DNA from: a virus
Lineage: Duplodnaviria; Heunggongvirae; Uroviricota; Caudoviricetes
Length of the DNA: 37,937 bases
Virus record (IMG/VR): IMGVR_UViG_2585427766_000015
Reading direction: 5' to 3' (one strand)
Of the stretch, positions 5,284 through 16,550 are shown piece after piece (position 1 is the stretch's first letter; every line of letters begins with the position of its first letter). Made by a program: the position numbers and the translations under genes. The notes below the pieces were generated by a model, which worked only from the letters and a program-made list of their open reading frames with translations, did no database searches and was not told the origin of the DNA.

Positions 5284-5448
5284 TTGCTAACGAATCATCC
5301 TGGACTTCATATGCCCCAGGCGGCTACTTCGTGGGCGTCCTGCCTGTTCGTTTTTGACATTTACTGACTGCTTACGACACATGCACCGTGTTGCAACCAG
5401 ATTTTGTTGTAATCCTGTAGTTGGTCTGGAACAAAAGATAAAATTAAA

Positions 5449-5485
5449 TTGCGAGATATGCAAGTGATATTTGCGAGATATGCAA
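5449..5485. promoter_or_regulatory. OL-like tandem operators: two perfect copies of palindromic TTGCGAGATATGCAA, with a putative leftward promoter
   Basis: Copies at 5449-5463 and 5471-5485 match the TTGC-N7-GCAA site in the cI-cro intergenic region; minus-strand TTGCAT -35 and TATCTT -10-like elements overlap them. Confidence 0.5.
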
Positions 5486-5491
5486 ATTTAT

Positions 5492-5520
5492 GGGTAATAA
5501 AAAGCCACCTTTCGGTGGCC
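5492..5520 (-). terminator. Rho-independent terminator downstream of the cI-like repressor gene
   Basis: Minus-strand GCCACC-GAAA-GGUGGC hairpin followed by UUUUUAUUA, about 20 nt after the repressor stop. Confidence 0.6.
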
Positions 5521-5539: not shown

Positions 5540-6232
5540 TTAATTATGTCTCTTAAGGGTTTGCGACTGACTGATTAAGACCTTTCCAAAGACCATGAAT
5601 CGGTGTTCGTTTTCGCTAGTAATTCCCCATTCACGGTAAATCTGGTTATCAGAAATCACCAGCAGTTTGTCAGGAATCATTTGAAGTCTTTTAACGTATA
5701 TTTTGTCATCAAAACCAAAGACATATATACCATCACCATCAAACTGATTGATGCTGACATCAACGAAGATGAGATCTCCTGGCTCAATGGTTGGACACAT
5801 ACTGTCCCCACGAACGTTGATAACTTTGATGTGATTGGCTGGTCGTCCGCCGAACATTGATACAGCATTATCAGTTCTGTATTCGATGGCATGAATCACA
5901 TCAATGACATCACCGCCTTGGATAAGGCCATTTCCCGCACTGGCACTGATATCCAGCATTTCAATACGGAACACATCCTTCACCTGCGCAACATCCTCAT
6001 TATTACTGTTTTTATATACAGTATTACTTTTGTGGGCAGAGGTAAAGAGATCAGCAATATCAACACCTAAGCTCTTGGCAATATTACTCAGTGTTTGTTC
6101 GGTAAATTGTTTTTGCTTACCCGTTTCTAAGCGCGAGATGTTCGCCGCATCTACTCCTATCGCTTCAGCGAGATCGGCGATTTTCATGTTCTTCGCTTGG
6201 CGAAGTTGTCTGACTCGGTTTCCTATGTTCAT
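5540..6232 (-). CDS. CI-like prophage repressor (N-terminal HTH, C-terminal S24 LexA-like autopeptidase domain), 230 aa
   Basis: N-terminal HTH (KIADLAEAIGVDAANISRLETG); C-terminal GDSMCPTIEPGDLIFVD with downstream Lys (Ser-Lys dyad); divergent from a cro-like gene. Confidence 0.9.
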   Translation of the reverse strand: MNIGNRVRQLRQAKNMKIADLAEAIGVDAANISRLETGKQKQFTEQTLSNIAKSLGVDIADLFTSAHKSNTVYKNSNNEDVAQVKDVFRIEMLDISASAGNGLIQGGDVIDVIHAIEYRTDNAVSMFGGRPANHIKVINVRGDSMCPTIEPGDLIFVDVSINQFDGDGIYVFGFDDKIYVKRLQMIPDKLLVISDNQIYREWGITSENEHRFMVFGKVLISQSQTLKRHN

Positions 6233-6329
6233 GCGTTTATTACATTTCTTTATTGCGTGATAAGCAAATCAACTTGCGCAAAATAATTGCGTGAAATAAC
6301 ATGCATAACGCGCAATATTTGGAGGGCAT
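6233..6329. promoter_or_regulatory. Immunity switch region (OR-like operators and divergent promoters)
   Basis: Perfect operator TTGCGTGATAAGCAA at 6253-6267 plus degenerate TTGCG-containing copies (TTGCGCAA, ATTGCGTG, CGCGCAAT); GGAGGG Shine-Dalgarno before cro ATG. Confidence 0.6.
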
Positions 6330-6590
6330 ATGCAATCACCATTACGAAATGTGCGTAAGGCGCATGGTTTCACTTTGCAGCATGTTGCTGCGGGTGTTCA
6401 AGTCAATCCAGCGACGTTGAGTCGTATTGAGAGGCTGGAGCAGATTCCATCTATCGAGCTTGCAGAACGTTTAGCCAATTTTTTTAAGGGTGAAGTCAGC
6501 GAAATGCAGATTCTTTATCCGGCACGTTTTCAATCTAGCCAAAACCAGAATGGGTTTAAACCACAGGAACAGGAGGTGAACCGTGGGTAA
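6330..6590 (+). CDS. Cro-like HTH (XRE family) regulator, 86 aa
   Basis: HTH motif FTLQHVAAGVQVNPATLSRIE; position divergent from the repressor. Confidence 0.75.
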   Translation: MQSPLRNVRKAHGFTLQHVAAGVQVNPATLSRIERLEQIPSIELAERLANFFKGEVSEMQILYPARFQSSQNQNGFKPQEQEVNRG

Positions 6591-7489: not shown

Positions 7490-8420
7490 ATTAACCGGCT
7501 ATGTATGGGATGGTTGCGCAGCGTCAGGCATGAAATTATCCAGCGTGGCAATTATGGCCCGCCTGGCTGATTTCAGTAATGACGAAGGTGTGTGCTGGCC
7601 ATCAATTGAAACCATTGCCCGTCAGATTGGCGCGGGGATGAGTACCGTCAGGACGGCTATCGCACGGCTGGAAGCAGAAGGCTGGTTAACGCGTAAGGCG
7701 CGTCGCCAGGGTAACCGCAATGCGTCGAATGTTTATCAGCTTAACGTTGCGAAGCTTCAGGCAGCGGCATTTTCTCAACTGTCAGATTCTGACCCGTCAA
7801 AATCTGACGCATCAAAATCTGACCCGTCCAAATTTGATGCGTCGAAATCTGGCAAAAAAGCGGGTTTTCACCCGTCAGAATCTGGCGGGGATCCGTCAGT
7901 AAAATCAAAACATGATCCGTCAGATAAAAAACCTTCTCGTCCGGACGCTTCGCAACCGGACACGCAGACGGCTGAACAGGATTTTTTAACTCGCCATCCT
8001 GATGCGGTTGTATTCAGCCCTAAAAAGCGCCAGTGGGGGACGCAGGATGATTTGACCTGCGCACAGTGGCTCTGGAAAAAAATCATCGCCCTGTACGAGC
8101 AGGCTGCCGAATGTGACGGCGAGGTGGTTCGTCCCAAAGAACCGAACTGGACAGCCTGGGCAAACGAAATTCGCCTGATGTGTGTACAGGATGGGCGTAC
8201 TCACAAACAAATCTGCGAGATGTACAGCCGCGTCAGCCGCGATCCGTTCTGGTGCCGTAACGTGCTCAGCCCGTCGAAGCTGCGGGAAAAATGGGATGAG
8301 CTTTCCCTGCGCTTATCGCCGTCCGTCAGCACGTACACCGAAAAACGCGAGGACCCGTACTTCAAAGCCAGTTACGACAACGTGGACTACAGCCAGATCC
8401 CGGCAGGATTCAGAGGGTGA
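7479..8420 (+). CDS. Replication initiation protein (O-like, N-terminal winged helix), 313 aa
   Basis: N-terminal HTH/winged-helix region; internal tandem DNA repeats (iterons) encoding the SDxSK repeat; position after the cro/CII block. Confidence 0.75.
   Translation: MSTKLTGYVWDGCAASGMKLSSVAIMARLADFSNDEGVCWPSIETIARQIGAGMSTVRTAIARLEAEGWLTRKARRQGNRNASNVYQLNVAKLQAAAFSQLSDSDPSKSDASKSDPSKFDASKSGKKAGFHPSESGGDPSVKSKHDPSDKKPSRPDASQPDTQTAEQDFLTRHPDAVVFSPKKRQWGTQDDLTCAQWLWKKIIALYEQAAECDGEVVRPKEPNWTAWANEIRLMCVQDGRTHKQICEMYSRVSRDPFWCRNVLSPSKLREKWDELSLRLSPSVSTYTEKREDPYFKASYDNVDYSQIPAGFRG
7785..7935. repeat. Putative origin of replication: about four tandem 15-bp iterons (TCTGACCCGTCAAAA-like) plus further CCGTCAG copies and an A/T-rich tract, inside the replication gene
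   Basis: Direct repeats read in sequence; same organisation as lambda ori within gene O. Confidence 0.6.
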
Positions 8421-8911
8421 TCATGAGTCTGTTAAATGACGTTCAGAAATTCATTGAAGCCCATCCGGGGTGTACTTCCGGAGACATTGCGGATGCTTTT
8501 GCAGGTTACTCACGGCAGCGCGTTCTGCAGTCAGCAAGCAAGTTACGTCAGAGTGGGCGTGTGGCTCACCGTTGTGAAGGGGATACACGCAGACATTTCC
8601 CGCGCCTGACTGAGAGAGCGCAGGAGCCGGAACCACAACCAGTTCGTGAAACCAGACCTGCGCGCAATTTCTATGTCGGCACTAACGATCCCCGGGTGAT
8701 TTTGTGCCTGACCCGCCAGGCGGAAGAACTGGAGTCAAGGGGCTTATACCGTCGTGCTGCAACCGTGTGGATGGCGGCATTCCGTGAAAGCCACTCCCAG
8801 CCAGAACGAAACAATTTTCTGGCGCGTCGTGAGCGGTGCTTACGGAAAAGCAGCAAGCGCGCTGCATCGGGTGAAGAGTGGTATCTGTCAGGGAATTACG
8901 TGGGGGCTTAA
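8417..8911 (+). CDS. Hypothetical protein with N-terminal winged-helix-like region and PerC/ANR-like C-terminal motif, 164 aa
   Basis: AEELESRGLYRRAATVWMAA resembles the PerC-family motif; assignment tentative. Confidence 0.4.
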   Translation: MIMSLLNDVQKFIEAHPGCTSGDIADAFAGYSRQRVLQSASKLRQSGRVAHRCEGDTRRHFPRLTERAQEPEPQPVRETRPARNFYVGTNDPRVILCLTRQAEELESRGLYRRAATVWMAAFRESHSQPERNNFLARRERCLRKSSKRAASGEEWYLSGNYVGA

Positions 8912-9237
8912 TGACGACGTTAACTCAATGCCAGCAGCAGGTGCTGGATATGCTGATTTCTTATCAGAAAGAACGTGGCTTCCCGCCAACCAATCAGGAG
9001 GTGGCAACCATGCTGGGATACCGTTCAGTGAATGCAGCGGTGGAGCATCTTCGCGCACTGGAGAAAAAAGGTGTCATCACGATAAAGCGTGGCGTGGCCC
9101 GGGGTATCACTCTTCATACCGCGGTGAAGGACGACGACAGCGAGGCGGTCGGGATTATCCGCGCACTGCTTGCCGGTGAGGAAAACGCAAGGCTGCGTGC
9201 AACCCACTGGTTACATGAGAGGGGCCTGAAAGTATGA
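8911..9237 (+). CDS. LexA N-terminal DNA-binding-domain-like protein lacking the protease domain, about 108 aa
   Basis: MTTLTQCQQQVLDMLISYQKERGFPPTNQEVATMLGYRSVNAAVEHLRALEKKGVI aligns by eye with the LexA N-terminal domain; ATG at 8911 overlaps the upstream stop (TAATG). Confidence 0.7.
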   Translation: MTTLTQCQQQVLDMLISYQKERGFPPTNQEVATMLGYRSVNAAVEHLRALEKKGVITIKRGVARGITLHTAVKDDDSEAVGIIRALLAGEENARLRATHWLHERGLKV

Positions 9238-9623
9238 AGCTGATCCTGCCTTTTCCGCCCAGCGTGAACACGTACTGGCGACACCCCAACAAAGGGGCGT
9301 TTGCTGGTAAGAGCCTGATAAGCGCGGCGGGGCGAAAATTCCAGAGCGCAGCGTGCGCAGCAATAGTTGAGCAGTTACGTCGTCTGCCGAAACCAACGTC
9401 GGCACCTGCTTCAGTGGAGATCGTGTTGTTTCCTCCGGATAACCGGATCCGCGATCTGGACAACTATAACAAGGCGCTGTTTGACGCCCTGACCCACGCG
9501 GGTGTGTGGGAAGACGACAGCCAAGTGAAAAGAATGTTGGTGGAGTGGGGACCGGTTATCCCGGAAGGGAAGGTCGAGATCACTATCAGTAAGTACGAGA
9601 AACCGGCGGGTGCAGCCGCCTGA
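9234..9623 (+). CDS. rusA: RusA-family Holliday junction resolvase, 129 aa
   Basis: MKLILPFPPSVNTYW... with conserved DxDN (RDLDNYNKALFDAL) characteristic of RusA. Confidence 0.85.
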   Translation: MKLILPFPPSVNTYWRHPNKGAFAGKSLISAAGRKFQSAACAAIVEQLRRLPKPTSAPASVEIVLFPPDNRIRDLDNYNKALFDALTHAGVWEDDSQVKRMLVEWGPVIPEGKVEITISKYEKPAGAAA

Positions 9624-9642: not shown

Positions 9643-10440
9643 ATGAATAATCTGATGGTCATTGATGGTATTGAAGTTCGTCGTGATGCTTATGGTCGTT
9701 ACAGCCTGAACGATCTGCACAGGGCTGCCGGTTCTCTGGATAAGCATAAGCCTGCATTCTGGCTCCGCAATGAGCAAACTGAACGTTTAATAAGCGAGTT
9801 GCAGATTTGCAACTCGGTCAATATAGAGCCAGTTAACGTTATTCGTGGCGGAAATAACCAGGGGACGTATGTCTGCAAAGAACTGGTGTATGCCTATGCA
9901 ATGTGGATCAGCCCGTCATTCCATCTGAAGGTGATCCGTACTTTCGACATGGTAACCAGCGCACCGGAAAAATTATCCGGACAGGCTGCTGACAAGATGC
10001 AGGCTGGTGTGATTCTGCTGGACTTTATGCGCCGGGAATTAAACCTGTCTAACTCTTCAGTGCTTGGTGCCTGTCAGAAACTCCAGGAGGCTGTTGGCTT
10101 ACCGAATCTGGCACCGCGCTATGCCATTGATGCTCCTGCTGACGCGCCTGATGGCTCAAGTCGCCCGACACTGTCGCTGAGTGCACTGCTGAAACAGTAT
10201 GGTATCCGCCTTACGGCTAATCAGGCATATCACCAGATGGTGAAGCTGGGGATCGTTGAACAACGCGAACGATACAGCCGTACCGCGATTAACAACATCA
10301 AAAAATTCTGGTCGCTGACGGCGAAAGGCTGCATGTTCGGCAAGAACATCACCAGTCCTGCAAATCCGCGCGAGACGCAGCCGCATTTCTTCGAATCCCG
10401 ATTCCCTGAGCTGTTAAAACTGCTCGATACCGTTCATTGA
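9643..10440 (+). CDS. KilA-N domain protein (antirepressor-like), 265 aa
   Basis: N-terminal KilA-N-like region (VIDGIEVRRDAYGRYSLNDLHRAAG ... FWLRNEQTERLI). Confidence 0.7.
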   Translation: MNNLMVIDGIEVRRDAYGRYSLNDLHRAAGSLDKHKPAFWLRNEQTERLISELQICNSVNIEPVNVIRGGNNQGTYVCKELVYAYAMWISPSFHLKVIRTFDMVTSAPEKLSGQAADKMQAGVILLDFMRRELNLSNSSVLGACQKLQEAVGLPNLAPRYAIDAPADAPDGSSRPTLSLSALLKQYGIRLTANQAYHQMVKLGIVEQRERYSRTAINNIKKFWSLTAKGCMFGKNITSPANPRETQPHFFESRFPELLKLLDTVH

Positions 10441-11452: not shown

Positions 11453-11818
11453 GTGATGCGTGATATTCAGATGGTTCTGGATCGTTGGGGAGCATGGGCG
11501 GCGAGTGATAGTTCAGGAGTAGATTATTCTCCTATAGCTGCTGGGTTTAAAGGGCTTCTTCCCTATACAAGCAAAACACGTCAGGCTTGTTCAGATAGTG
11601 ATGCATTAATTATTGAAGGTTGTCTTGCACGTCTAAAGCAAAAAAGACCTGATGAGCATTCGCTTCTTGTGGCACATTATTTATACAGAATATCCAAGCG
11701 TAAGATTGCAAAGGCGCGTGGAAAGGATGAGAAACTAATACGCATTGAGATACAGATGGCTGAGGGGTTTATTGATGGATGCCTTTCAATTCTGGATGTT
11801 AAACTTGAAATGGATTAG
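11453..11818 (+). CDS. Putative late-gene antiterminator (phage 82 Q-like family), 121 aa
   Basis: MMRDIQMVLDRWGAWAA ... IAAGFKGL ... resembles the small Q-type antiterminators; sits upstream of the late promoter/terminator region. Confidence 0.55.
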   Translation: MMRDIQMVLDRWGAWAASDSSGVDYSPIAAGFKGLLPYTSKTRQACSDSDALIIEGCLARLKQKRPDEHSLLVAHYLYRISKRKIAKARGKDEKLIRIEIQMAEGFIDGCLSILDVKLEMD

Positions 11819-11823
11819 TGAAA

Positions 11824-11841
11824 CCCCGGCTTAAGCCGGGG
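11824..11841. terminator. GC-rich hairpin (CCCCGGC-TTAA-GCCGGGG) between the convergent Q-like and NYN genes; possible bidirectional terminator
   Basis: 7-bp perfect stem with short T-rich flanks on both strands; the NYN stop codon lies in the loop. Confidence 0.45.
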
Positions 11842-12694
11842 ATGTTTCAGATTGAAGTGTTTTTTTCTTGGGCTCGTTCTTAGATGATTTTGTTTTCTTT
11901 TGACGATTGAGTTTTTTCTCTTTGCGTCTGTCAATATAATCGTCCCACCAATCAGGTTTTACTGTTGGGACGATTCTGCAAATATCAGCAATTGCAACAA
12001 CAATGTTGCTCGATTGCACTCCATCGACGTGCTCTGCCAGTGAGGGAGGAACTTGTTGGTTCATTGGATCGAGGATAAAATCTACACCCTTTATACGGGC
12101 ATGTTTAGCGGCAGGAACGAAATCAGCATCGCCAGCAATCAGGACGATCACATCAACTAGTTTCTCATGAGCAAGGATAGTTATATCCATACCAAGCTTA
12201 ATATCGACGGCTTTTTGTTTATATTCGTAGTAGAAATCGTCGTTAGTTAACTCAGACCATTGAATTTCATTACGTAATAGTTTCTTAAGAGTATGTTCTT
12301 TTATTTGCCAGTTACCGACGTTTGAAAGAATACCCATACGAAGTGCCGTTTTACGATTCTTCCTTAGCTCCTCATGAAGCTTGTTTCGTAAAACATTCGG
12401 AGCATGTGTCTTGAAGTTTTTAGTTGATGGGGTTTTGTTGTCTCCATCAGGCAAAGGATACTTAATCTGTTTATCAAGCGGCGGGCAGTCGTAATAGTAA
12501 ATACGGTAAAGCTCAAGTGGTTCACGGTCAGCGTGAGCACCATGTCGAACCTCTACATGAAATTTAACAATTCGCCAGATTATTTTAACAAGTTGTTGGC
12601 TGTCTAACTCATGCCCAGGGAAATGTTTTCGTAGAAAGTAATCAATCCGACGGATGAAGTAGCCGCCGTCAATCAAGACTGCTGTTTTCTTCAT
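11831..12694 (-). CDS. NYN-domain (PIN-like) putative ribonuclease with Lys-rich C-terminal tail, about 287 aa
   Basis: Conserved acidic motifs of the NYN/LabA fold (LIDGGYF, VDIKLGMD, IAGDADFVPA); start taken at the ATG at 12694 (MKKTAV); the ORF track extends to a GTG at 12706. Confidence 0.8.
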   Translation of the reverse strand: MKKTAVLIDGGYFIRRIDYFLRKHFPGHELDSQQLVKIIWRIVKFHVEVRHGAHADREPLELYRIYYYDCPPLDKQIKYPLPDGDNKTPSTKNFKTHAPNVLRNKLHEELRKNRKTALRMGILSNVGNWQIKEHTLKKLLRNEIQWSELTNDDFYYEYKQKAVDIKLGMDITILAHEKLVDVIVLIAGDADFVPAAKHARIKGVDFILDPMNQQVPPSLAEHVDGVQSSNIVVAIADICRIVPTVKPDWWDDYIDRRKEKKLNRQKKTKSSKNEPKKKTLQSETSPA

Positions 12695-12706
12695 TGAAAA
12701 ACTCAC

Positions 12707-13448: not shown

Positions 13449-14501
13449 ATGAAAAATACTGTAAAAATAAACAGTGTTGATTTAATCAACGCTGATTGCC
13501 TGCATTTTATTCAGTCCCTGCCTGATGATTCCATTGACCTGATTGTTACCGATCCGCCGTACTTCAAGGTGAAACCCAACGGCTGGGACAATCAGTGGAA
13601 AGGGGACGAAGATTACCTTAAGTGGCTGGACCACTGTCTGGCCCAGTTCTGGCGGGGGTTAAAACCTGCCGGAAGCCTTTACCTGTTCTGTGGGCATCGC
13701 CTGGCATCTGATATTGAGATCATGATGCGTGAACGTTTCAACGTGCTTAACCATATCATCTGGGCGAAGCCGTCCGGACGTTGGAATGGGTGTAATAAAG
13801 AAAGTCTGCGCGCATATTTTCCTGCCACAGAGCGCGTTCTGTTTGCTGAACATTACCAGGGGCCATATCGCGGCAAAAGTGACGGCTATGCGGCAAAAGA
13901 AAGGGAACTCAAACAGCACATAATGGCACCGCTGATATCGTATTTCAGGGATGCTCGTGCCGAACTGGGTATAACGGCAAAACAAATTGCCGAAGCCACA
14001 GGTAAGAAAAATATGGTTTCCCACTGGTTTGGTGCCAGTCAGTGGCAGTTGCCGAATGAGGCTGACTATCGGAAGTTACAGGCACTGTTTTCCCGTATAG
14101 CGGCAGAGAAGTTTCAGGAACAACAACTGGAACAACCACACCACCAGCTGGTGGCATCTTATGATTCACTGAATCGCAAATATTCTGAATTGCTGGATGA
14201 GTTTAAATCTCTCCGGCGCTATTTCTCCGTATCAGTCTCCGTGCCTTATACCGATGTCTGGACGCATAAGCCCGTTCAGTTCTACCCGGGTAAACATCCG
14301 TGCGAGAAACCGGCGGATATGCTCCGGCAAATAATCAATGCCAGTAGTCGACCTGGTGATCTGGTTGCTGATTTCTTTATGGGATCCGGTTCCACAATAA
14401 AAGCAGCAATGGCGCTGGGGCGTCGGGCGTTAGGTGTTGAACTTGAGTCAGAGCGGTTTAATCAGACGGTGAAAGAGGTAAGTGAACTGGTGGGGAAATA
14501 A
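13449..14501 (+). CDS. DNA methyltransferase (N6-adenine/N4-cytosine type, beta-class), 350 aa
   Basis: N-terminal DPPY motif (DLIVTDPPYF) and C-terminal AdoMet-binding FxGxG (FFMGSGST). Confidence 0.85.
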   Translation: MKNTVKINSVDLINADCLHFIQSLPDDSIDLIVTDPPYFKVKPNGWDNQWKGDEDYLKWLDHCLAQFWRGLKPAGSLYLFCGHRLASDIEIMMRERFNVLNHIIWAKPSGRWNGCNKESLRAYFPATERVLFAEHYQGPYRGKSDGYAAKERELKQHIMAPLISYFRDARAELGITAKQIAEATGKKNMVSHWFGASQWQLPNEADYRKLQALFSRIAAEKFQEQQLEQPHHQLVASYDSLNRKYSELLDEFKSLRRYFSVSVSVPYTDVWTHKPVQFYPGKHPCEKPADMLRQIINASSRPGDLVADFFMGSGSTIKAAMALGRRALGVELESERFNQTVKEVSELVGK

Positions 14502-15923: not shown

Positions 15924-16550
15924 TCAGTTGTCAAATGAATATACGTTAAAGGTATATGTCGACATAATTTCACCAAGTACCTCAATACATACACTTTTTT
16001 TATGAAAATTACTGGGAAATGAACTTAGCTCCTCAAGACATTGCACATAAGTGCTGATATCACTTGCATCACGTTCAAGGAATTTCACTTGACCAAAAGA
16101 AGGAGTTTTAATCTTGGTTCTTTGCTGGATTATATGGATAAAGTGTGTAGTTGGTGAAACTATTACTCTTGAAATATCGGAAATGATGTCTTCTTGAACT
16201 TGCCGATAAAGTAAATCCTTTGGGTAATGGTGTTTAATCTCGATGGTTGCAACATTGCCATTATGTTCAGACGTTAATATCGACTGGTTATAAAGTGATA
16301 TGTCAACAGCGCCGATACCGAGTTTTGGATGCTCACTTAAAGCAGTTAGTGTGCTGATTTGATTGAGTATAACAACTAACTCATCACGTATTTGTGTTTC
16401 ATGTTTGCGATTGTAGAAGTAGCCATTCAGTTCATTTAACTTTTTATGCATCCTATCGTGACTAATTGCTTCGATCAGTAAATCCTGAATCATACTTTTC
16501 TCTAGATAATCCGAACGGTTGTAAGTGACAGTATTGTGCTGGCATGTCAT
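15924..16550 (-). CDS. Hypothetical protein, 208 aa (possibly 189 aa from internal ATG), AT-rich; candidate nuclease-like effector
   Basis: Downstream gene of an antisense two-gene cassette; GAVDIS ... (17 aa) ... ATIEIKHHY has the spacing of a PD-(D/E)xK core (inference only). Confidence 0.6.
   Translation of the reverse strand: MTCQHNTVTYNRSDYLEKSMIQDLLIEAISHDRMHKKLNELNGYFYNRKHETQIRDELVVILNQISTLTALSEHPKLGIGAVDISLYNQSILTSEHNGNVATIEIKHHYPKDLLYRQVQEDIISDISRVIVSPTTHFIHIIQQRTKIKTPSFGQVKFLERDASDISTYVQCLEELSSFPSNFHKKSVCIEVLGEIMSTYTFNVYSFDN

Follow-up and report, generated by a model that had tools for sequence, protein, structure and literature searches.

The gene lexN, located at positions 8911 to 9237 on the plus strand of a prophage sequence, encodes a 108-residue truncated homologue of the SOS repressor LexA that combines a LexA-like DNA-binding head with a conserved two-helix tail and carries no protease domain. 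The name is our shorthand for this open reading frame (ORF) in IMGVR_UViG_2585427766_000015, a 37,937-nucleotide stretch of Caudoviricetes DNA that is referred to below as the window and whose numbering is used throughout. The window represents a lambdoid (SfV/e14-like) prophage inserted beside proA and tRNA-Thr of Escherichia coli. Strong purifying selection acts on lexN, including its tail, and the protein encoded by the window retains four of the five residues with which LexA contacts bases. We tentatively favour a reading in which lexN provides a RecA-insensitive surrogate for LexA that would occupy SOS boxes, mainly those of the host, when made from a derepressed or SOS-induced prophage.

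A LexA reading head with a conserved tail

An earlier note on this DNA described the product as the N-terminal winged helix of LexA, ending before the S24 peptidase domain, and profile and structure searches bear out this description of the head. Residues 1-65 match all 65 positions of the Pfam family LexA_DNA_bind (PF01726) with E = 2.9e-19 and 69 bits (cut-off 23.7), and no match to Peptidase_S24 (PF00717) or to any further Pfam domain was found in the protein. The lexA equivalog model TIGR00498 is matched only over positions 1-91 of 203, and the score of 70.5 bits falls below its cut-off of 110.95. A phmmer search of PDB returned the E. coli LexA DNA-binding domain (1LEA) as the top match, without gaps over residues 2-70 (E = 6e-16). 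These similarities are far beyond what chance would produce.

An AlphaFold model computed from 40 homologues (predicted local distance difference test score, pLDDT, of 84) contains three helices, a wing, a poorly defined short linker and a helical hairpin; this model was used in place of a single-sequence model, whose pLDDT of 54 made it unusable. Foldseek aligns the model with DNA-bound LexA (3JSO) at a root-mean-square deviation of 1.0 Å over 67 columns with 51% identity. The winged helix-turn-helix spans residues 1-68 (8911 to 9114, plus strand), with helices at 6-22, 28-35 and 40-52 and a beta wing at 56-58/66-68, and the recognition helix at residues 40-52 (VNAAVEHLRALEK) is encoded by 9028 to 9066 on the plus strand.

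LexA is reported to contact bases through residues S39, N41, A42, E44 and E45 of helix 3 (PMC3091678). By ungapped numbering, S39, N41, A42 and E45 are identical in lexN and E44 is replaced by V, such that the conservation of DNA-contacting residues that the earlier note had proposed to check holds at four positions and fails at one. As counted from the PDB alignment, 10 of the 13 residues between 38 and 50 are identical to those of E. coli LexA. Judged by these residues, the reading head of the window protein is LexA-like. Across the family of lexN proteins, S39, N41, K53, R64, G65 and I66 are invariant; K53 directly follows the recognition helix, and R64-I66 lie within the wing. Conservation within the family is highest at the DNA-binding residues.

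The description of a protein that simply stops before the S24 domain is incomplete, because a further conserved tail of 40 residues with two helices follows the head. The hairpin formed by residues 75-103 (helices 75-88 and 93-103; 9133 to 9219, plus strand) is conserved throughout the family, and a Foldseek comparison with PDB structures yielded no match for it. As an amphipathic hairpin, it could plausibly serve in dimerisation. The HMMER alignment with LexA continues to residue 90 and places A88-G89 of lexN on A84-G85 of LexA, which probably reflects how the gene arose, from a lexA truncated just beyond the cleavage strand.

This alignment also bears on a very improbable alternative, in which lexN would act through protein contacts, with its tail serving as a pseudo-substrate or decoy for LexA- and CI-type proteases triggered by activated RecA (RecA*), or as a RecA binder. 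The tail segment VGIIRALLAGE aligns with LVGRVAAGE of the LexA cleavage strand (LexA residues 75-86, including Ala84-Gly85), the TIGR00498 match runs as far as model position 91, and lexN of Klebsiella phages neighbours the RecA modulator DinI. However, the Ala-Gly pair is swapped in homologues (LLANE, LLVGE, MVERE, MIAEE), the segment is modelled as a confident helix rather than as an extended cleavage loop, and it is the DNA-binding residues that are most conserved. We therefore rejected mimicry of the cleavage site by the sequence LLAGE.

The absent part of the protein is the one through which LexA is inactivated. Cleavage and contact with RecA* both reside in the C-terminal domain of LexA, as does a dimerisation function (PMC3159453). 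Because this domain is missing, lexN cannot be inactivated in the manner of LexA, as the earlier note had argued.

Distribution, selection and accessory character

At nucleotide identities of at least 95% (mostly 95-99%), 2233 of the 5426 complete E. coli genomes (~41%) carry lexN, at 2855 places in total. It also occurs in 50 deposited phage genomes, including those of SfV, SfII, SfIV, mEp460, cdtI, Stx2c phages and some Stx2a phages, and a profile scan of genome contigs gave 15 loci. Profile searches delineate a family of proteins with 106-135 residues, all of which have a LexA head and a tail of the same type. Members are found in Escherichia, Shigella, Salmonella, Citrobacter, Cronobacter, Klebsiella, Enterobacter, Atlantibacter, Kosakonia, Leclercia and Hafnia, with more than 1000 Klebsiella sequences in a single cluster. 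The tail has the consensus ...EAVxLLRALLAxExxARxRAxxxLxxxG, and both length and tail are shared by proteins as divergent as those of E. coli and Klebsiella (40-50% identity).

The family appears in databases under several names. PHROG 362, labelled 'transcriptional repressor', matches lexN from end to end (E = 1e-59), RefSeq lists the protein as 'LexA family transcriptional regulator' (WP_000210156.1), the mEp460 copy is called 'LexA DNA binding domain protein', and orf42 of SfV is 'unknown'. These entries refer to the same family and are database labels that could not be traced to an experiment. A full-text literature search, whose coverage does not extend to subscription journals, found no functional study of the protein. 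No match for lexN to a PADLOC defence system was found.

The E. coli type is represented by 44 nucleotide alleles, which differ by 50 synonymous and 6 non-synonymous variants (omega ~0.04). The comparison with the Citrobacter homologue gives a proportion of non-synonymous differences (pN) of 0.19 and a proportion of synonymous differences (pS) of 0.77, or 0.24 versus 0.90 for the tail alone. Thus, lexN is under strong purifying selection, and the tail shares in it. The selection and conservation data identify lexN as a functional gene. The alternative that it is a decaying, functionless piece of a captured lexA could appeal to its resemblance to a lexA cut just past the cleavage site, but this is effectively refuted by the low omega, the conserved length and tail, the coupling to genes on both sides and the presence of the gene in so many E. 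coli genomes.

To obtain a neutral control, related phages were sampled by their Q gene, and 37 of these 58 loci (64%) carry lexN. In relatives that lack it, the gene for a Dam-type methylase abuts rusA with nothing in the place of lexN, and gene order is otherwise unchanged. Therefore, lexN is an accessory gene, a status more in line with a factor that modulates the host than with a regulator essential to the phage. We place little weight on the argument that the protein stays constant across very mosaic backgrounds, which is weakly supported, as the sampled phages differ rather little in their early-right block.

Gene junctions and expression context

The start of lexN overlaps the stop of a PerC-like (YfdN) gene at 8417 to 8911 on the plus strand, where the final A of TAA doubles as the first base of the lexN ATG at 8911 (TAATG). 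At the other end, the ATG of rusA, which encodes a Holliday junction resolvase (9234 to 9623, plus strand), begins at 9234 and overlaps the lexN TGA at 9235-9237 (ATGA). Both overlaps had been pointed out in the earlier note and are found at the places given there. The ATGA junction recurs in all 80 related IMG/VR loci that were inspected, and an alternative in-frame GTG exists at 8878; alignments of homologues and of LexA begin at the ATG instead. From these overlaps, lexN is translationally coupled to both of its neighbours. The gene on its 5ˊ side encodes a Dam-type methylase in 54 of the 80 loci and a PerC-like protein, as in the window, in 25; one instance of this slot is at 4363-5714 of L513. 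Both genes are present in some phages, and the 164-residue PerC-like protein of the window has an additional N-terminal portion resembling a winged helix (PHROG 1324).

The rightward early operon that includes lexN is headed by an operator/promoter region and a cro-like gene (6233 to 6590, plus strand). No sigma-70-like promoter site was found directly 5ˊ of lexN, and no plus-strand terminator-like sites were found between the end of the cro-like gene and lexN. The sole plus-strand site of this kind in the stretch, at 6349-6366, is weak (3 G-C pairs) and lies within the cro-like ORF. Given that neither a nearby promoter nor a terminator was detected, lexN is presumably expressed as part of the delayed-early rightward (pR) operon.

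An SOS box over a promoter of its own, as expected of a member of the SOS regulon, was not found for the window copy of lexN. The same feature is present in relatives from Klebsiella and Enterobacter. In a sample of 80 IMG/VR loci with a 130-residue homologue of the Klebsiella type, a canonical SOS box is located within 1.3 kilobases upstream of lexN in 70 of the 73 that have enough upstream sequence, and a DinI homologue is encoded between the box and lexN in 76 of 80. The box (TACTGTTTATTTATACAGTA) overlaps a promoter with the −35 and −10 elements TTGAAC and TATACT, and it is the reverse complement of the 20-nucleotide SOS box of E. coli istR2, hence the same site. It is followed by dinI, orf96 (phrog_1813), lexN, orf67 (phrog_1212), the DUF968 gene and Q, with gaps of 12 and 40 nucleotides and one ATGA overlap. 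Examples from Klebsiella and Enterobacter include L206 (9380-10600), L294 (7440-8520) and L203-L282, and one Enterobacter chromosome has the order SOS box, orf97, lexN. Based on this arrangement, lexN of Klebsiella and Enterobacter prophages is predicted to be an SOS-induced gene beside a modulator of RecA*. No DinI gene was found near lexN in any of 80 E. coli-type loci, including the window.

A comparable arrangement exists in the Gifsy prophages, whose dinI-antirepressor-irsA operons are controlled by LexA (Lemire et al. 2011, PMC3121763). The Klebsiella-type operon occupies the same place in the prophage and likewise has an SOS-box promoter, dinI, a small ORF and a third gene. However, irsA (STM1020) encodes an unrelated DUF1367 protein, which rules out its identity with lexN, and orf96 has no similarity to the antirepressor GftA, which removes that candidate as well; orf96 may be an uncharacterised antirepressor. 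In the window, lexN has no such operon around it. LexA-controlled expression is by itself uninformative about the function of lexN, because gp6 of the phage GIL01, an activator of late genes, is also produced from a LexA-controlled operon.

SOS boxes carried by the prophage

The window contains two near-consensus SOS boxes that are candidate sites for LexA and possibly for lexN. The first (TACTGTATATAAAAACAGTA, as read on the cI strand; 6004 to 6023) lies within the gene for the CI-type prophage repressor, an HTH_3 and Peptidase_S24 protein encoded at 5540 to 6232 on the minus strand. The second (TACTGTAAAAATAAACAGTG; 13457 to 13476) covers codons 3-9 of an N6/N4 DNA methylase gene (13449 to 14501, plus strand; PADLOC MTase_II, E = 4e-151), which is situated between the lysis genes and Q (11453-11818). 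The boxes were scored with a weight matrix derived from 20 E. coli sites, at least 13 of which are listed in Table 4 of PMC3009722. Real sites score 13-27, a range that includes the scores of the cI box (26.7) and the methylase box (22.2), and shuffled windows yield 0.23 matches per window at a much lower threshold. More than 120 IMG/VR contigs contain an exact 28-mer with the methylase box, and methylase homologues at a greater distance show variants of the box.

The sequence of the cI box exactly matches those of the umuD and sbmC boxes in the table of PMC3009722, and the box falls in the linker between the helix-turn-helix and S24 domains. When two cI alleles with a DNA identity of just 69% are compared, no other perfectly conserved stretch is as long, and the box occupies the same codon in homologues of 52-100% protein identity. 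Its CTGT/ACAG arms are fixed, and both the spacer and the encoded residues vary (TVYKNS, TVCKHS, TVETYS). This combination of fixed arms with variable spacer and residues speaks for selection on the DNA, in keeping with a LexA operator inside the repressor gene. The pattern suggests that LexA binds within cI, where it might provide a second SOS input or act as a roadblock. The box is also found in loci L158, L285, L513, L542 and L548, and it is present in 79 of 80 sampled IMG/VR loci of the cI allele family. The allele itself, rather than the box, was counted in E. coli genomes and matches 1040 of 5426. No promoter-like site adjoining the cI box was found, and its occurrence is independent of lexN. 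The e14 repressor YmfK was considered as another carrier and lacks the box.

Repeats of the type TTGCG-N5-GCAA flank cI (5440-5500 and 6240-6320), for example TTGCGAGATATGCAA, which occurs twice, and TTGCGTGATAAGCAA. We take them to be the probable OL and OR operators for this type of immunity.

A proposed RecA-insensitive surrogate for LexA and rival readings

If lexN is a surrogate for LexA, the following sequence of events can be envisaged, for which we infer DNA binding, specificity, dimerisation, repression and benefit. Once the CI-type repressor is cleaved, or after infection, lexN would be transcribed with the delayed-early rightward operon. The protein would then bind operators of the LexA type (CTGT-N8-ACAG), probably as a dimer that assembles on the DNA and/or via the tail, and would hold SOS-box promoters just when the LexA of the host has been destroyed. 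The likely benefit would be that the SOS programme of the host is capped or shut off in a cell committed to phage production, which would affect SOS toxins, error-prone repair, colicins and the LexA-controlled antirepressors of rival prophages. DNA binding by a head alone is credible because the N-terminal domains of LexA contact one another on the operator (PMC3159453) and because gp6, a shortened homologue that is 44% identical to the LexA of its host, binds a palindrome (PMC6182141).

Several observations weigh against this reading. Glu is present at position 44 in no member of the family. The E. coli, Salmonella, Enterobacter and Kosakonia types have E at position 45, and Cronobacter and Atlantibacter have D, but this position is L in Klebsiella pneumoniae (whose type has L44 L45), G in Citrobacter, and T or I in two others. 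A few subfamilies have Thr or Gly at position 42, as in Citrobacter (T42). Such drift at positions 42, 44 and 45 would be unexpected if the invariant SOS box of enterobacteria were the common target, and specificity across the whole family may have drifted. In the Q-anchored sample, moreover, lexN is not associated with the cI box (two-by-two counts 10, 21 / 3, 8; p = 1) or with the methylase box (13, 18 / 5, 6; p = 1), and there is no enrichment with any box (19, 12 / 9, 2; p = 0.28). In a sample of the 80 top-ranking loci, the genes lexN, rusA, KilA-N, DUF968 and Q move as a unit, and a phage target inside this block is possible. Work from the Little laboratory reportedly found that the isolated N-terminal fragment of LexA binds operators weakly. 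Finally, gp6, the sole characterised truncated LexA homologue, recognises a different operator and is an activator (PMC6182141).

The phage-borne boxes themselves prompt another explanation, which we consider improbable. In this case, lexN would be dedicated to the boxes of its own prophage, in cI and at the methylase start, where it would succeed LexA after induction and might, for instance, prevent further transcription of cI as a commitment lock. The scores of the two window boxes relative to shuffled windows are consistent with this proposal, as are the identity of the cI box to the umuD and sbmC boxes and its conservation at the DNA level. IMG/VR loci picked by a box also carry lexN frequently (16 of 17 and 52 of 59 for the cI box, and 33 of 38 for the methylase box). 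However, the 64% base rate and the lack of association in the Q-anchored control remove this signal, and co-occurrence was rejected as evidence. In addition, both boxes are present in lexN-negative phages, 35 of 80 E. coli-type lexN loci have no SOS box within ~10 kilobases, and the Citrobacter variant has G45 and T42 despite a canonical cI box. A target in cis on the phage is therefore not supported, and if lexN reads SOS boxes, the constant target would be those of the host.

A possible though rather doubtful alternative is that lexN is a phage transcription factor similar to gp6, namely a captured LexA head that has its own phage operator and activates or represses a phage promoter during lytic growth. 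The precedent is direct, in that gp6 is expressed from a LexA-controlled early operon and binds the palindrome GaCACAn nTGTGaC in the nanomolar range, at −43.5 of the late promoter and overlapping the −35 element, to activate transcription, with K38 critical for its specificity (PMC6182141). The differences at positions 42, 44 and 45 among subfamilies, the box-free E. coli-type loci and the location of lexN in a conserved block are likewise compatible with such a role. Against it stand the four LexA base contacts retained by the window clade and the loss of the gene without replacement in relatives, which indicates that no essential phage promoter needs it. Furthermore, late genes of lambdoid phages are switched on by Q, and an inverted-repeat search around lexN for a non-SOS operator found no recurrent palindrome.

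The earlier suggestion of an uncleavable mimic of the SOS repressor, which corresponds to the LexA surrogate that we favour, thus stands in part. The four base contacts and the operon with an SOS box and dinI in Klebsiella and Enterobacter speak for it, and the variation at positions 42, 44 and 45, the lack of enrichment for phage boxes and the example of gp6 speak against it.

Comparison with known systems

The closest parallel to lexN is gp6 of GIL01, a tectivirus of Bacillus thuringiensis (Fornelos et al. 2018), which is also a phage-encoded LexA winged helix without an S24 domain. Both would be expressed early, after lysogenic repression is lifted, and both were presumably captured from a host lexA. 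However, gp6 is a bare domain, whereas lexN adds a conserved two-helix tail. The specificity of gp6 has changed and the protein activates a late promoter, whereas lexN of the window clade keeps S39, N41, A42 and E45 in phages that control late genes via Q. The carriers also belong to unrelated lineages, a Gram-positive tectivirus in one case and enterobacterial lambdoid prophages in the other, and lexN is dispensable in close relatives. Tectiviral proteins with a LexA domain in BFVD are ~30% identical to lexN, and gp6 itself was likened to lexN by its published description. It is likely that lexN and gp6 were captured independently.

Many stand-alone LexA-domain proteins of 65-150 residues, encoded by unrelated phages, are present in BFVD. 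Thus, a phage-borne LexA head without a protease is already known, and the enterobacterial lineage described here stands apart by its conserved tail, its LexA-like head and, in some genera, an operon with an SOS box and dinI. Other proteins from metagenomes and genomes (P0133, P0156, P0162 and others; 140-170 residues) contain two tandem LexA winged helices per chain, and such a protein might recognise both halves of a palindrome as a monomer.

E. coli LexA and its 1-84 cleavage fragment share with lexN their fold, 51% domain identity and a nearly identical recognition helix. Unlike LexA, lexN lacks the S24 domain, Ser119/Lys156 and a conserved Ala84-Gly85, and it scores below the TIGR00498 cut-off. 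The 1-84 fragment is quickly degraded by ClpXP and Lon (PMC3159453); lexN has an added hairpin and ends in ...GLKV. A functional analogy for the surrogate reading is offered by gp7 of GIL01, which clamps LexA on DNA, blocks its cleavage and delays a co-resident prophage after DNA damage (PMC9700832). Both proteins would keep SOS-box promoters repressed despite damage. However, gp7 is an unrelated small protein that acts via the LexA of the host, whereas lexN would replace LexA.

Additional features near lexN

In 10 of 80 E. coli-type loci, a terminator, an SOS box and a KilA-N gene follow rusA, 764 nucleotides past the lexN start. An example at ~10650-10900 of L006, with the box TACTGTATTTATGAACAGTG, looks like a LexA-controlled module of the antirepressor type. 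In the window, the KilA-N gene (9643-10440) directly follows rusA without an SOS box. Two leftward genes are situated inside the rightward late region and are possible morons or defence genes. One (11831-12706, minus strand), right after Q, encodes a 291-residue NYN-domain protein with weak PADLOC matches to NYN and HEC-09, and the other (15924-16550, minus strand) is a 207-residue ORF for which no Pfam or PADLOC match was found.

Implications

Prophage induction, Shiga-toxin release, mutagenesis and antibiotic tolerance all pass through LexA. If our tentative reading is correct, an occupant of SOS boxes that is blind to activated RecA would constitute a built-in modulator of these LexA-run processes and of prophage competition, a part that gp7 of GIL01 already takes in Bacillus. 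The gene is widespread in E. coli and is carried by phages that convert Shigella serotypes and by Stx2-converting phages. A more specific proposal, which we regard as unlikely at present, is that lexN serves induced lambdoid prophages, among them those encoding Stx2, as an SOS shut-off factor, and that it imposes a RecA-proof re-repression on the host LexA regulon and on the LexA-controlled antirepressors and colicins of competitors. Were this so, SOS shut-off would govern how co-resident prophages rank against one another and how strongly SOS-dependent toxins are produced, and in Klebsiella phages lexN and DinI would together exert a two-pronged negative feedback on the SOS response. If lexN instead recognises an operator of its own, it would join gp6 as a second, independent instance in which a LexA head was captured and turned into a phage regulator.

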